A stretch of 64,000 bases of DNA from Chryseolinea sp. (GCA_039930485.1 JBDTTT010000007.1:6261-70260); one strand, 5' to 3'; positions 22,430-36,060 are shown, counted from the first letter of the stretch. Made by a program: numbers and translations. Notes: generated by a model not told the origin, from the letters alone.

Positions 22430-22456
22430 ATAAGGATATATAAAGTATAAGGATAT
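22430..22456 (+). promoter_or_regulatory. Direct repeat ataaggatat x2 spanning the PadR start codon (candidate operator)
   Basis: Identical 10-mers occur at 22430-22439 and 22447-22456, a 17-nt period. The second copy contains the PadR ATG at 22455. Confidence 0.3.
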
Positions 22457-22787
22457 GGCAAAGGAATATTTGGGAGAGTTTGAGGAGTTGATTTTAACCA
22501 TGGTGGCTGCTTTGCAAGAAGATGCATACGGTGCCGCCATCTCAGAAGAAATTGAAACGCGATTGAAACGCGAAGTGAACCTGAGCGCGGTACACGTAAC
22601 GCTATACCGCCTGGAAGATAAAGGACTCATCAAATCGAGTTTGGGCGGAGGTACGAATGAAAGAGGAGGAAGACGAAAAAGAATTTTCACCATTACCAGT
22701 GCGGGCATGGCCATGTTGCGTGCGATGAAAGAAGCAAGAATTGATTTGTGGAAGTTGGTTCCTCAATTGAAGATGACAGGAATATGA
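22455..22787 (+). CDS. PadR-family winged-helix transcriptional regulator
   Basis: 110 aa; GEFEELIL...AYGAAISEEIE...VHVTLYRLEDKGLIKS...GGRRKRIFTITSAG matches the PadR wHTH pattern. Its stop overlaps the next start (ATGA at 22784-22787). Confidence 0.85.
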   Translation: MAKEYLGEFEELILTMVAALQEDAYGAAISEEIETRLKREVNLSAVHVTLYRLEDKGLIKSSLGGGTNERGGRRKRIFTITSAGMAMLRAMKEARIDLWKLVPQLKMTGI

Positions 22788-33413: not shown

Positions 33414-36060
33414 GGATAGTGAACATATTGAATCAAAGAGAATTTTTAAAATCTTACGGATTTTCTGTCCCGATCACCTCTATGAAGAAATCGAAGGCGA
33501 CCTCATTCAAAAATTTAATCGGGATGTAAAGAATTTTGGAGAGACGAGAGCGAGGAGAAGATTGATTTGGAATTCAGTTCGGTTTTTTAGACTGGGAATT
33601 GTATTGAGAAATAAATTTTCAGTGGAGTTAAATCAAATACCCATGTTTCAGAACTATTTCAAAACAACATACCGACATCTGCTGAAAAGTAAAATTAACT
33701 TTGCATTCAAACTTGGTGGTCTTACGTTGGCATTGCTCAGCTTTCTCGTCATTGCTATTTATGTTTCTTTTCAGTTGTCGTTTGATCGGTATCATGAAGA
33801 CTACGAAAATATTTATCGCGTAAACTCTGAGTGGAGAGAAAATGGAAACATGGCGAAGTATGCAATCGCCCCTACAGGAATTGGGTCAGCATTAAAGGAA
33901 GAATTTCCTGAAGTTAAATCGTTCGCAAGAGTAGGATTCCCGAGCAAATACCAAATCAAGTACAACAATAAACTTTTTCGATTAGAAGGATTCACAGAAG
34001 TGGATACTTCGGTATTTCAGGTGTTAACGTTCAAATTTTTGAAAGGAGATCGGCATTCACTAAATCATCCAAACGCTGTTGTTTTAACAGAGTCAATGGC
34101 GAATATAATTTTTGGTGATGAAGATCCTATGAATAAGGTATTGTCATTTGTGGACCGATCCAACAAAATCTTTGAAGTGTCTGGCATCATAGAAGATGTG
34201 CCAAGCAATTCTCATTTGGAAATAAAAGCGTTGCTGCCTCTTGGAGCTTTAGGTGATGAGCAGGACGTAGCAATGGATGGATGGAGTATAGGCGTTGATG
34301 GATCTGCAAGTTTATATTTACGATTCAATGATAAGACGAAGCCAAATGAGTTTGTTGCCAAATCAGTACCCTTCATACGAAAGCACCTTACTAAAAGCGA
34401 AGATGGTCTTGAAAAAGAATATGCGATTTCACTAACTGCAATCAAAGACATTTATCTGACACCAAGCATTTATACTGAATTTTGTGCCAAGGGAAATATT
34501 GTTTATGTGTACGCCTTTTCATCTCTCTCACTATTCCTTCTTGTCATTGCGAGTATAAATTACGTTAACCTCTCCATTGCTGACTTTCATAATCGTAATA
34601 AAGAAATAGGAGTACGAAAAGTATTAGGTGCCAGGAAGAAGCAAATCGCTTTTCAGGTCATTATAGAAGCTTGCCTCATTTGTTTTTCAGGACTCATTTT
34701 AAGTATTGGATTCTTGTACTTTTTAGTTCCACAAGTATTGCAATTACTTGATGTCCGCCTTAGTTTGGCTATGCTATTTGATACTCGTGTCATGATTTTG
34801 ATCGGCTTAACTGTGTCAATACTCATCATTTTCTCTACGGCATACCCCGCGTATCAGCTTGCTATGAATAACCCAATCAATGATTTGAAATCAGGAAGTG
34901 GTTTAGGGAAAAACTCCTCTGTCGGTAAAATACTTTTACTGGCTCAATTTACAATTTCCATTATTTGTATCAGCGCTACGCTTATAGTAGGTCAGCAAGT
35001 TGAATTCATTCAAGCTAAAAACCCTGGCTATGACCGGCATAATATGATTGTTGTGTATACACCTGATCGATTTCCGTCAGAGAAAATCCCCGTAATTAAA
35101 GATGAGTTTAAAAAGCTGCCCGGAATAGAAGCTGTTTCGTATTCTACTTTTCGTATTGCAGGTGCTGGGTACTATCGAGATTGGTATAGAGTTGAGATCG
35201 GTGGTGAAATGAAACGAATGATACTCAATGAAGTATTTTTTGATCATGACTTTTTCAAGGCGTCTGGCATACCACTAATAGCGGGGCGATCATTCGATCC
35301 AAATATCGCAACCGATTCACATGCCGCTTTTATTATAAATGAAACAGCGGTGCGTGAGTTTGGCTGGGATGATGCCATTGGTAAGAGAATAAATTATGGC
35401 TATGATGAAACTGATGGTGAAAAATGGGAGGGTACAGTGGTGGGTGTGGTAAAGGATTTTAATGTTTATTCACTTCATAAAAAGATTGGGCCTTTGGTAA
35501 TGCGCTTACCGTGGTCTGATTGGCCAGGTCAGTGCATTCACATAAAAATCAACGGACCGTTAGATCAAACAATAGCTTCCATCAAAAAAAAGTATGAAGA
35601 AATCCTACCCGACTTTATTCTCGACTATAGTGTGATTGAAGACTTGTATAACAACCAGTATCAGGGAGAGAAGAAAGCATTTACGGCACTTCAAATGAGT
35701 ACATGGATCATCGTGCTTATTTCATCCCTCGGAATTTTCTCGTTGTCTATTTACATGTCAGCAAGGCGAATGAAAGAGTTTGGTATTCGAAAAGTATTGG
35801 GTGCTACGGCTCGCCAGATATCGCTCTTACATGTAGGTCATTTTATTAAGATTGCATTTTTGGCAAATGTAATTTCGTTACCGATTGCATATTGGCTGAT
35901 GAAAGAATGGCTGGATGAATTTGCCTATCGAACAGAACTTAGCAGTTTTGTATTTCTTTTGGTAACCGCAATTTCATTTTTACTTGTAATTGTATCAGCA
36001 GGATATTCTTCGTGGAAAGCGGGAAGGATGAATCCTGTTGATATAATTAAGATTCAATAA
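33406..36060 (+). CDS. Prefix-domain duplicated FtsX/MacB-type ABC permease, paralogue 5
   Basis: It has IFCPDHLYEEIEGDLIQKFNRD and the motifs RNKEIGVRKVLGA and RMKEFGIRKVLGA. The GTG start at 33406 is inferred from the conserved 8-nt overlap pattern (GTGAGTAA), and no in-frame ATG precedes the conserved module. Confidence 0.85.
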   Translation: MSKDSEHIESKRIFKILRIFCPDHLYEEIEGDLIQKFNRDVKNFGETRARRRLIWNSVRFFRLGIVLRNKFSVELNQIPMFQNYFKTTYRHLLKSKINFAFKLGGLTLALLSFLVIAIYVSFQLSFDRYHEDYENIYRVNSEWRENGNMAKYAIAPTGIGSALKEEFPEVKSFARVGFPSKYQIKYNNKLFRLEGFTEVDTSVFQVLTFKFLKGDRHSLNHPNAVVLTESMANIIFGDEDPMNKVLSFVDRSNKIFEVSGIIEDVPSNSHLEIKALLPLGALGDEQDVAMDGWSIGVDGSASLYLRFNDKTKPNEFVAKSVPFIRKHLTKSEDGLEKEYAISLTAIKDIYLTPSIYTEFCAKGNIVYVYAFSSLSLFLLVIASINYVNLSIADFHNRNKEIGVRKVLGARKKQIAFQVIIEACLICFSGLILSIGFLYFLVPQVLQLLDVRLSLAMLFDTRVMILIGLTVSILIIFSTAYPAYQLAMNNPINDLKSGSGLGKNSSVGKILLLAQFTISIICISATLIVGQQVEFIQAKNPGYDRHNMIVVYTPDRFPSEKIPVIKDEFKKLPGIEAVSYSTFRIAGAGYYRDWYRVEIGGEMKRMILNEVFFDHDFFKASGIPLIAGRSFDPNIATDSHAAFIINETAVREFGWDDAIGKRINYGYDETDGEKWEGTVVGVVKDFNVYSLHKKIGPLVMRLPWSDWPGQCIHIKINGPLDQTIASIKKKYEEILPDFILDYSVIEDLYNNQYQGEKKAFTALQMSTWIIVLISSLGIFSLSIYMSARRMKEFGIRKVLGATARQISLLHVGHFIKIAFLANVISLPIAYWLMKEWLDEFAYRTELSSFVFLLVTAISFLLVIVSAGYSSWKAGRMNPVDIIKIQ
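33460..33531 (+). repeat. Conserved 72-nt 5' box, copy 5 of 5
   Basis: attttctgtcccgatcacctctatgaagaaatcgaaggcgacctcattcaaaaatttaatcgggatgtaaag. Confidence 0.9.

Follow-up and report, generated by a model that had tools for sequence, protein, structure and literature searches.

The dyad of a HAAS domain and a PadR-like winged helix-turn-helix regulator is the closest signaling system described. Ravi, Aravind and co-workers proposed it computationally (mSystems 2024, PMC11237479), and their proposal covers fusions to FtsX/MacB permeases, one example being a duplicated permease of acidobacterial origin. In this dyad, a stand-alone PadR is encoded directly 5' of a membrane protein with an N-terminal cytoplasmic helical module; the module is fused to multi-TM sensors, duplicated FtsX/MacB permeases among them, and is proposed to function as an adaptor that relays a membrane signal to PadR. 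The HAAS domain consists of three consecutive helices, and a conserved GxP motif marks the kink in the third (PMC11237479). Two PadR repressors of Listeria, LltR and LstR, each control the operon to which they belong, and these operons also code for membrane proteins with DUF1700/HAAS (PMC6624303). Another related group is formed by the ADOP permeases (TIGR03434) and the acidobacterial PadR proteins (TIGR03433), i.e., large paralogous families with duplicated FtsX, no adjacent ATPase and an adjoining PadR.

Among transporters, YbbP of the E. coli YbbAP-TesA system (9ge6/9ge7) is a single-chain, pseudo-dimeric type VII permease with 10 TM helices. It has an adjacent ybbA ATPase gene and a periplasmic hydrolase partner, whilst an N-terminal prefix and a PadR are absent (PMC12646458, PLoS Biol 2025). 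YbbP depends on YbbA and operates with two of these ATPases, and the coupling helices touch the ATPase in YbbAP, MacB, and LolCDE (PMC12646458). In MacAB-TolC, LolCDE, HrtBA, and Spr0694-0695, two single FtsX units form a dimer, and the ATPase is either fused to them or adjacent; some of these type VII systems have an adaptor and an outer-membrane duct. In BceAB-BceRS, the type VII permease doubles as a sensor for its own regulator; BceB has an adjacent ATPase and signals, within the membrane, to a histidine kinase.

The array described here is located in a 64-kb stretch of DNA, the window, from a Chryseolinea-like host of the Cytophagales and consists of six genes on the same (+) strand. The first gene, padR (22455..22787), encodes a 110-aa, single-domain winged-helix regulator of the PadR family. 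It is followed by the genes for five duplicated FtsX/MacB permeases, each starting with a prefix: Paralogue 1 (870 aa; 22784..25396, prefix ~22784-22981), Paralogue 2 (899 aa; 25432..28131, prefix ~25432-25641), Paralogue 3 (893 aa; 28124..30805, prefix ~28124-28324), Paralogue 4 (871 aa; 30798..33413, prefix ~30798-30992), and Paralogue 5 (884 aa; 33406..36060, prefix ~33406-33612), which is the last of the array. The initial annotation listed a 110-aa PadR overlapping by ATGA the first of five paralogues of 870-900 aa that fill 13.3 kb, and an ORF check confirmed this layout: the stop codon of padR and the ATG of Paralogue 1 (22784) share the sequence ATGA, and the five permease genes, encoding 870-899 aa each, measure 13,277 bp in total (22784-36060). 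The junctions between Paralogues 2/3, 3/4, and 4/5 are 8-nt overlaps, and the gene downstream of Paralogue 5 is on the opposite strand. The six genes constitute an operon, which is probably autoregulated. The HlyD, AcrB, and OEP genes at 46-5107 encode an RND pump, in agreement with the earlier description of an unrelated RND set at the start of the window. One permease paralogue without a prefix is present in the same 64-kb window.

The PadR of the array belongs to family PF03551 (37 bits, E 3.4e-9; Pfam cut-off 27), and its nearest solved structure by sequence is 5dym (E 8e-7, PDB). Directly 5' of padR lies a 28-nt element, TTATTTGCTTAACAAAACATAAGGATAT (22412..22439, + strand), which is a candidate for both the promoter and the PadR operator. 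Within it, ATTTGCTTA (22414-22422) and TAAGGATAT (22431-22439), separated by N8, form an imperfect inverted repeat with the core CTTA-N8-TAAG. The half-site ATAAGGATAT is found at 22430-22439 and again, as a second direct copy that reaches into the padR start codon, at 22447..22456 on the + strand. This duplication is present in the window and in three related loci (L001, L002, and L004), slightly altered in four others (L007, L009, L012, and L021), and the second copy is missing in loci where the ATG immediately follows the first. The 28-nt element precedes padR in most of 56 upstream regions compared and occurs a single time in the window, where 0 chance matches are expected. Its 16-nt core is present in exactly one copy per locus in 34 loci. 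In the mapped loci, the core is always located just 5' of padR, with the exception of L068, where PadR is absent and the core lies directly 5' of a lone prefix-permease. Rather than an operator for PadR, the element could also be a mere promoter and leader. A scan of the window for sigma-70 promoters and terminators gave no information, as is to be expected in Bacteroidota, with 53 promoter-like sites vs. 55 expected.

All five prefixes belong to NF038404, "permease prefix domain 2," with scores of 46.8-57.1 bits over approximately residues 6-69 (NCBIfam cut-off 35), and close relatives are named "permease prefix domain 2-containing transporter" in RefSeq. The "nearly invariant" prefix of the initial annotation is conserved, with a mean pairwise identity of 72% over 53 core columns among the five paralogues. 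By analogy with the N-in topology of MacB and YbbP, this helical module of ~65 aa is placed in the cytoplasm. In the AlphaFold2 model of Paralogue 4, it comprises three helices (residues 8-16, 19-40, and 42-55) and, after an interruption at S57-R58-P59, a further one at 59-65. The interruption coincides with a conserved RP[GE] motif and resembles the kink in HAAS, yet the GxP motif is absent. The prefix of Paralogue 3 modeled alone was helical at low confidence (pLDDT 62), and for this low-confidence model Foldseek found no fold match in the PDB with E below 6.

No kinship of the prefix with DUF1700/HAAS-type domains was recovered. The HAAS superfamily was taken as PF22564 HAAS, DUF1700, DUF1129, and DUF1048, which equals NCBIfam prefix domain 1. 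No HAAS or DUF1700 was detected in the five prefixes at E<=10 in Pfam, and hhalign of prefix 2 vs. prefix 1 gave probabilities of 0.6-1.9% (P 0.025-0.09), although the same procedure aligned Firmicutes prefix 1 with acidobacterial prefix 1 at 95.7% probability (E 1e-8). Two of four Firmicutes prefix-1 proteins gave weak matches to PF22564. When compared with PDB and Pfam by sequence, either singly or as a profile, the prefix had no matches. Thus, the profile searches suggested in the initial annotation returned NF038404 but neither HAAS nor DUF1700. The neighbor of a cyanobacterial plasmid PadR, considered as a source of HAAS sequence, was discarded because it matched neither HAAS nor DUF1700. 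The array shares with the HAAS-PadR dyad the gene order, the fusion of a helical module to duplicated permeases and the proposed relay to PadR, but differs from it in that the adaptor is prefix domain 2, without detectable similarity to HAAS/prefix 1, and in that one PadR is present for five receptors in series.

Other loci show the prefix in different company. In two of them (L037 and L056), it is fused to non-permease membrane proteins of ~1000-1080 aa encoded directly after PadR; the one in L037, a DUF2723-like, non-ABC protein, scores 59 bits against NF038404. Paralogue 1 and its orthologue in a near-identical relative (L002) are 92% identical in the body and 55% in the prefix. The prefix is modular, in view of these fusions and of its exchange between near-identical relatives.

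The permease bodies of all paralogues contain two MacB_PCD and two FtsX domains according to Pfam. Paralogue 4 was modeled full-length with AlphaFold2 (pLDDT 85.9, pTM 0.74), and the model shows eight TM helices and two periplasmic domains in the order helical prefix, elbow helix, TM1, PCD1, TM2, coupling helix, TM3, and TM4, after which the set is repeated. The Pfam domains and the 8-TM model support the earlier proposal of two fused FtsX halves forming a built-in pseudo-dimer. The permeases have the type VII ABC fold, with FtsX TM helices, TM1 and TM2 flanking a periplasmic domain, and a coupling helix linking TM2 to TM3, as judged from Pfam, PDB sequence matches, and Foldseek matches to 9ge6, 5lil, 5gko, and 7arh. 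The FtsX TM fold and the Porter/Sabre-type periplasmic domain are shared, in sequence and fold, with MacAB-TolC, LolCDE, HrtBA, and Spr0694-0695, whereas the array encodes no ATPase, adaptor, or duct. The top structural match of Paralogue 4 is YbbP (9ge6, E 1.5e-18). The match is full-length over 904 columns, and in YbbP, too, a coupling helix follows both TM2 and the equivalent TM helix of the second half, but identity with the window permeases is 12-13% and the model has eight rather than 10 TM helices. BceAB is matched by Foldseek at E ~3e-9; with a soluble PadR and a presumed N-terminal cytoplasmic contact in the window, this analogy is one of logic only.

TIGR03434 and TIGR03433 are the best NCBIfam matches of the window permeases and PadR, respectively. 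However, the permeases score 203-316 bits against a cut-off of 622.3, and PadR scores 31 bits against a cut-off of 101.8. Therefore, the permeases are not ADOP by NCBI's criterion, and the earlier comparison applies to the duplicated FtsX without an adjacent ATPase but does not extend to the score. Furthermore, the lineage in the window is Bacteroidota.

Among the window paralogues, identity amounts to 33-36% in the TM blocks vs. 24% in the periplasmic domains. The direction of the contrast between conserved TM helices and strongly diverged outer domains was thus correctly perceived, but the contrast is modest. In 63 homologues, residues R398, E401, R405, G409, and A410 and residues R775, E778, R782, K783, and G786 are invariant, and they are located on or next to the two coupling helices of the Paralogue 4 model (residues 399-408 and 776-784).

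A six-frame scan of the 64-kb window showed neither a Walker A nor an LSGGQ motif, and no transporter-type ATPase is encoded within ~10 kb in ~50 related loci, nor near prefix-less relatives. The only ABC-like ORFs read in the related loci are UvrA and one cut, unclassified ORF of 189 aa (L052). A ~975-aa "ABC" ORF located 5' of padR in ~17 loci was rejected as a candidate for the lacking ATPase: the one in L007, the only one examined over its full length, is UvrA, and its place near padR is therefore synteny only. The lack of a neighboring ATPase would fit with pure receptors, i.e., orphan pseudo-dimers that relay ligand-driven conformations to the prefix and PadR without transport or ATP, and so would the divergence of the outer domains and the name of TIGR03434, which refers to the orphan status of its permeases. 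Such a function is improbable, however, as conservation in the family is highest on the two coupling helices, which are ATPase contacts in YbbAP, MacB, and LolCDE. Moreover, prefix-less relatives without a regulator retain the same coupling motifs, which therefore serve something besides PadR signaling. The invariant coupling-helix residues and the operation of YbbP with two YbbA ATPases make an ATPase elsewhere likelier than ATPase-free operation. Thus, the reported absence of an ATPase is correct locally, for the 64-kb window, but by analogy a partner ATPase is likely encoded elsewhere in the genome.

When counted on the same strand within 1.5 kb upstream, PadR was found with 50 of 51 prefix-bearing arrays and with none of nine prefix-less duplicated permeases (Fisher p ~6e-9, which overstates independence since the loci, nearly all of Cytophagales, are related and were found via the prefix). 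Five further prefix-less contexts also lacked PadR. An adaptor-bearing membrane protein beside a stand-alone PadR, as in the dyad, is therefore the rule in this sample, and the anticipated co-occurrence of PadR with prefix-bearing rather than prefix-less permeases was borne out. When 49 loci from several genera of Cytophagales were compared with the window, the median identity was 86% in PadR, 67% in the prefix, and 39% in the body. PadR and the prefix are thus co-conserved, whilst the bodies have diverged. The order of PadR followed by a permease with a prefix-2-type N-terminus is found in Spirosoma, Adhaeribacter, Fibrella, Chondrinema, and Gemmatirosa. A true ADOP of Gemmatirosa (776 bits) has a weakly prefix-2-like N-terminus and a PadR neighbor that is 44% identical to that of the window.

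Could this adjacency be the inherited synteny of one clade, with an array that arose by recent tandem duplication and a prefix without regulatory meaning? The prefix served to collect the loci, nearly all of which belong to one order, and synonymous-codon identity among the paralogues is somewhat higher in the prefix (64% vs. 40%), which suggests some gene conversion. Still, this explanation is very improbable. The paralogues are mutually only ~30% identical, and the duplications are therefore old, whilst the same gene order recurs with a PadR of only 44-54% identity in other families of bacteria and in Gemmatimonadota. Array membership differs between close relatives, but padR and the upstream element stay. 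Furthermore, close homologues without a prefix (41-55% identical to Paralogue 4) branch among the prefix-bearing ones on the tree of the bodies, and the prefix state changed ~17 times on a rough neighbor-joining tree of 162 permease bodies; one ancestral event would therefore not account for the linkage.

Since PadR is present only where the prefix is found across these related bacteria, the most likely role of the prefix is to link permeases and regulator. Short members of the PadR family, such as LmrR, need no partner for direct ligand sensing, and the window PadR is likewise a plain, single-domain protein of 110 aa. Hence, it might be an ordinary drug-responsive repressor that, like LmrR or PadR itself, directly senses a small molecule and represses a resistance operon of efflux-type permeases, whilst the prefix would have a role unrelated to PadR, such as ATPase docking or recruiting, membrane insertion, or oligomerization. 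Prefix 2 is not detectably HAAS, and as no ATPase is adjacent, a shared docking module could explain the near-identical prefix in five paralogues. However, the prefix-less close homologues are equally devoid of a neighboring ATPase and lack PadR alone; therefore, the prefix tracks PadR and not the absence of an ATPase. Direct sensing is also difficult to reconcile with the prefix of the DUF2723-like, non-ABC protein that is encoded next to PadR and with the repeated joint gain and loss of prefix and PadR, and we consider it unlikely.

As an explanation of the whole, we favor a PadR-repressed operon of prefix-coupled sensor permeases with an ATPase in trans, to which we assign a probability of roughly 0.55. 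PadR would bind the inverted-repeat element at 22412-22439 and repress the operon, like the Listeria PadR repressors of HAAS-protein operons, and the prefix would be the PadR-coupled adaptor. When a permease meets an envelope substrate or stress, a mechanotransmission cycle would make the prefix alter its hold on PadR, by membrane capture or release, and this altered hold would shift transcription. Because the five prefixes are near-identical and the outer domains differ, several inputs would feed into a single regulator. Probably, the permeases act as effectors, too, and clear the inner membrane or periplasm of hydrophobic or amphipathic compounds by extraction or expulsion. Power would probably come from an ATPase like MacB, LolD, or YbbA, with its gene elsewhere and its docking site on the conserved coupling helices. 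The logic would be that of a HAAS-PadR-type dyad or of a BceAB-like "transporter as sensor," in which the prefix takes the place of HAAS without being detectably related to it. The signaling idea is not new, as it was already put forward in 2024 as the HAAS-PadR dyad (PMC11237479). A more far-reaching proposal, possible but doubtful, is that prefix domain 2 represents a second adaptor, with an evolutionary origin separate from HAAS, by which the PadR repressor is captured at the membrane or set free, and that the tagged arrays are one-regulator, many-receptor OR-gates. In such a gate, mechanotransmission in any one envelope-facing permease would reset the transcription of the whole, fast-changing receptor array.

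The initial annotation knew of no experimentally demonstrated substrate, partner, or mechanism, and literature searching agrees with this: no functional study was found of the permease prefix domain, of duplicated orphan permeases or of Bacteroidetes PadR with FtsX. In Bacteroidota, Acidobacteriota, and Gemmatimonadota of soils and sediments, duplicated "orphan" FtsX permeases with a neighboring PadR make up paralogous families of very large size. If the prefix truly couples permease conformation to PadR, these families would represent a widespread alternative to two-component signaling in the sensing of envelope stress or antimicrobials, and a second, non-HAAS construction of PadR-coupled membrane sensing. 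The idea is now directly testable, with a defined adaptor, a candidate operator at 22412-22439, and prefix-less paralogues as natural controls. Cultured carriers of the system are Chondrinema litorale, Spirosoma, Adhaeribacter swui, and Fibrella.

An apparent PadR-prefix fusion protein (P0369) considered as a Rosetta stone was rejected as a frameshift artefact. Likewise, ORFs of ~260 aa between array members were rejected as a new, "prefix-only" architecture; they consist of a clipped prefix followed by unrelated low-complexity sequence, and we take them to be remnants. The narrow clade of the prefix alone comprises ~1,180 clusters at 50% identity.

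The padR gene (22455-22787, + strand) encodes a PadR-family winged-helix protein (110 aa; Pfam PF03551, 37 bits vs. a cut-off of 27). It is followed on the same strand by five long ORFs encoding duplicated FtsX/MacB permeases, i.e., paralogue 1 (22784-25396), paralogue 2 (25432-28131), paralogue 3 (28124-30805), paralogue 4 (30798-33413), and paralogue 5 (33406-36060). The stop codon of padR overlaps the ATG of paralogue 1, and 8-nt overlaps are found between paralogues 2 and 3, 3 and 4, and 4 and 5; thus, the six genes look like a single operon. The initial annotation had described the PadR gene and the five same-strand permease paralogues (22455-36060) correctly.

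All five paralogues contain two MacB_PCD and two FtsX domains (Pfam) and, at residues ~6-66, a match to permease prefix domain 2 of NCBIfam (NF038404; 47-57 bits vs. a cut-off of 35), whilst their scores against the duplicated orphan permease (ADOP) family TIGR03434 (203-316 bits) are well under the cut-off of 622. Overall, the paralogues are 29-34% identical, with a mean pairwise identity of 72% in the prefix core, 33-36% in the TM blocks, and 24% in the periplasmic domains. Hence, the prefix, earlier described as nearly invariant, is so in spirit, and the reported contrast between conserved TM segments and diverged outer domains exists but is modest. Where the amino acids of a column are identical, so are the codons in 64% of cases in the prefix vs. 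~40% elsewhere, which indicates that prefix conservation results mainly from selection at the protein level; the difference, seen at 22784-22981 and in the other four prefix stretches, also hints at occasional gene conversion or nucleotide-level constraint.

Paralogue 4 was modeled with AlphaFold2 from a 63-sequence alignment (pLDDT 85.9, pTM 0.74). In the model, the prefix consists of helices at residues 8-16, 19-40, and 42-55, a break at S57-R58-P59, and a helix at 59-65, and is followed by an elbow helix at 72-89. The first half then comprises TM1, periplasmic domain 1, TM2, a short cytoplasmic helix (399-408), TM3, and TM4, and the second half repeats this order with a second short cytoplasmic helix at 776-784. 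The model thus predicts eight TM helices in an internal pseudo-dimer. Its top Foldseek match in the PDB is E. coli YbbP of YbbAP (9ge6, E 1.5e-18, 904 columns, full length), followed by MacB, Spr0694-0695, BceAB, LolCDE, and HrtBA; sequence profiles matched MacB and the Porphyromonas permease domain 3is6.

YbbP belongs to the type VII ABC permeases and is pseudo-symmetric; it binds two YbbA ATPases via coupling helices between TM2-3 and TM8-9 (PMC12646458). The invariant residues of 63 homologues, both prefix-bearing and prefix-less, include R398, E401, R405, G409, A410, R775, E778, R782, K783, and G786, which are located on or beside both short cytoplasmic helices of the model. Together with the likeness to YbbP, this suggests that the permeases still dock an ABC ATPase, which would be encoded elsewhere: as noted in the initial annotation, the operon encodes no ATPase, and no frame of the 64-kb window contains a Walker A or ABC-signature motif. 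That the permeases are pure receptors operating independently of ATP is quite improbable, given the conservation of these coupling helices. YbbAP partners a periplasmic hydrolase, TesA. An AraC-type regulator and a 562-aa β-lactamase-fold serine hydrolase are encoded at 19455-22360 (+ strand), ending 94 nt before padR; this neighbor is retained in the closest relatives only. In a related locus (L007, 2055-4964), padR is closely preceded by a same-strand uvrA-like gene of ~975 aa, which has equivalents in ~16 further loci; it was rejected as the transporter ATPase and is read as conserved synteny.

A scan with the prefix alignment, in one genome per species, yielded 391 confirmed stretches, from which 70 loci were kept, nearly all of them from Cytophagales (Chryseolinea, Ohtaekwangia, Cyclobacteriaceae, Flammeovirgaceae, and Roseivirgaceae); L001, L002, and L004 are closest to the window and point to a Chryseolinea-like host. 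All loci were mapped for the prefix, the permease body, PadR, and ABC motifs. Of the 51 prefix-bearing arrays with enough upstream sequence, 50 have a PadR gene in the preceding 1.5 kb on the same strand, whereas none of nine prefix-less duplicated permeases has PadR upstream (Fisher p ~6e-9, a value that overstates independence, as the loci are related to one another and were ascertained by their prefix). Thus, in these mostly Cytophagales loci, PadR tracks the prefix, as anticipated earlier. In the sole exception (locus L068), the conserved element that precedes padR elsewhere is still present.

The window itself provides one of these prefix-less controls, a natural internal one. A sixth duplicated FtsX/MacB permease (54348-56792, + strand, 814 aa), located between the genes for a HEAT-repeat/cytochrome c protein and a Dabb-domain protein, has no prefix, and neither PadR nor an ATPase is encoded nearby. 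By length, close homologues of paralogue 4 form two groups, ~870-890 aa with prefix and ~807-818 aa without, and six gene neighborhoods of the latter contained neither PadR nor ATPase genes. One of these six (L084, 1-18433) encodes at least eight tandem prefix-less duplicated FtsX permeases of 786-817 aa, with no regulator or ATPase inside the locus. The shorter homologues of paralogue 4 begin at a Met conserved at the junction between prefix and body. This near-invariant Met (Met77 of paralogue 3, at about 28352-28354, with an equivalent codon in the other paralogues) corresponds to the start codon of the prefix-less homologues (MLLN.../MIL...); possibly, it is a relic of an ancestral start, or an internal start yielding a prefix-less isoform.

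Adjacency of PadR and permease could be inherited synteny and nothing more. This is very improbable indeed, as the prefix state changed ~17 times on a rough neighbor-joining tree of 162 permease bodies, indicating that the prefix-PadR link was not inherited from a single ancestral event, even though two of the apparent prefix losses are probably truncation artefacts. Moreover, the PadR-permease order is found across families and phyla. PadR homologues with 41-54% identity are plasmid-borne in cultured Spirosoma, Adhaeribacter, Fibrella, and Chondrinema, as well as in Gemmatirosa, and each one examined precedes a permease of 860-900 aa whose N-terminus is a divergent version of the prefix-2 type. 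Over 49 loci, PadR (median identity to the window, 86%) is more conserved than the prefix (67%), and the prefix more than the body (39%), which points in the same direction as the linkage. Among 1.84 billion representatives, the prefix profile matched 1,180 clusters at 50% identity, and among the 150 best matches listed, the prefix was always near the N-terminus.

The prefix is a modular unit. In two loci, L037 (6666-9935; NF038404, 59 bits) and L056 (6740-9970), it is fused to a ~1000-aa multi-TM segment in non-permease proteins of ~1080 aa, encoded directly after PadR and ahead of the prefix-permeases; by eye, their bodies resemble DUF2723/GT-C. Also, paralogue 1 of the window and its counterpart in the near-identical locus L002 share 92% identity in the body and only 55% in the prefix. 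Alternatively, PadR might sense a ligand directly, with the prefix serving another role, such as ATPase docking. This is rather unlikely: prefix-less relatives are equally orphan and differ in lacking PadR, and a non-ABC protein bears the prefix too.

Comparison of L002 (Chryseolinea MAG OZ245766.1, 690-12643) with 22455-36060 of the window revealed fast turnover of array content, with padR and its upstream element retained: relative to the window, L002 has an extra 303-aa gene between padR and paralogue 1, carries a different prefix on paralogue 1, lacks paralogue 4, and has, in place of paralogue 3, a copy that is only 50% identical. Between array members of several loci, ORFs of ~260 aa were observed that start with a truncated prefix (up to ...EEIEGDL...) followed by unrelated low-complexity sequence (L007, 9177-9968; L009, 6584-7375; L012, 15167-15946; L025, 132-926; L041, 6540-7331; L053, 1043-1828). 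Probably, these are rearrangement remnants, with an insert of ~790 nt.

Most of the 56 upstream regions read have an element in common, TTATTTRCTTAACAAAAYATAAGSATAT, directly before padR. It is present in a single copy in the window (22412-22439), where zero chance matches are expected, and each of 34 loci has a single exact copy of its 16-nt core, always just before padR where genes or upstream regions were mapped. The element contains an imperfect inverted repeat, ATTTGCTTA-N8-TAAGGATAT, and its 4-N8-4 core resembles the ATGT-N8-ACAT arrangement of known PadR operators. The window has two copies of the right half-site (22430-22439 and 22447-22456). The stretch 22412-22439 is a candidate PadR operator, although it may also, or instead, comprise promoter and leader. 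Distant PadR loci have different motifs of their own, some as two direct copies of ~22 nt. This is the case upstream of the Chondrinema PadR genes (L076, about 8910-9000; L081, about 5910-6000; L083, about 5895-5985), where the locus-specific copies, e.g., AAAACTACATTTAAGGTAAATA, and the element of the window have an ACAT..AGG core in common. In Gemmatirosa, there is a perfect palindrome, CCTTAC-AAC-GTAAGG. Operator specificity may have diverged together with PadR.

The HAAS domain (DUF1700, DUF1129, DUF1048) and its obligate PadR partner were defined by Ravi, Aravind and colleagues, and the pair was proposed as an alternative to two-component systems (PMC11237479). Two PadR repressors of Listeria, LltR and LstR, act on the operons that they are part of, in which DUF1700/HAAS membrane proteins are encoded as well (PMC6624303). 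Signaling through such a pair, put forward in the initial annotation, had already been published. Natural proteins with permease prefix domain 1 (NF038403) were gathered with a hand-typed ADOP-like probe. On Firmicutes plasmids, PadR precedes 220-280-aa membrane proteins annotated in RefSeq as "permease prefix domain 1-containing" (NF038403, 39-54 bits), and two of four had weak matches to HAAS (PF22564) in the same stretch, which suggests that prefix 1 corresponds to HAAS. The prefix of the window was earlier likened to DUF1700/HAAS-type domains, but Pfam gave no HAAS or DUF1700 match in prefix 2, and hhalign of prefix 2 vs. prefix 1 gave just 0.6-1.9% probability, with P at best 0.025 over 35 columns, as against 95.7% (E 1e-8) for a control of Firmicutes vs. 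acidobacterial prefix 1. Prefix 2 is thus an equivalent of HAAS in position and context, whereas membership is not detectable by these tests. The predicted helical break of prefix 2 at the conserved RP(G) recalls the kinked third helix of HAAS, as a resemblance only. A true ADOP of Gemmatirosa (776 bits), which adjoins a PadR 44% identical to that of the window, has a weak prefix-2-type N-terminus (17.5 bits), showing that both prefix types are present on this permease family.

With a probability of roughly 0.55, PadR autoregulates the operon via the conserved element, and the prefix is a PadR-coupled adaptor on permeases that would act as sensor and effector both. Several inputs would then reach one regulator via five divergent pairs of outer domains, and the mechanotransmission cycle would be powered by an ATPase encoded elsewhere. 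The anatomy of the operon, its linkage, the joint conservation of PadR and prefix, the modularity of the prefix, and the conservation of the upstream element are shown, whereas we infer binding of the prefix by PadR, the operator function, the direction of regulation, the ATPase partner, and the class of substrate. The earlier observation is confirmed and its interpretation partly supported. The system differs from the HAAS-PadR dyad in its adaptor, which is not detectably HAAS, and in having five receptors for one regulator. Its kind is catalogued in NCBIfam and outlined by the dyad, and no experimental test of it was found in the literature. To a specialist, it will be no great surprise, but an old annotation curiosity becomes a defined, testable system.

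Besides the AraC-type regulator and the hydrolase, the neighbors of the array include an EamA transporter. Elsewhere in the window, the HlyD (fragment), AcrB, and OEP genes at 46-5107 form an RND efflux pump, matching the RND set earlier assigned to 1-5107. The gene at 40198-42492 (- strand) is for a PorZ-like type IX secretion protein, which carries a C-terminal sorting domain, and at 47395-48521 there is an ECF sigma factor whose neighbor is a weak zf-HC2 (anti-sigma-like) match.
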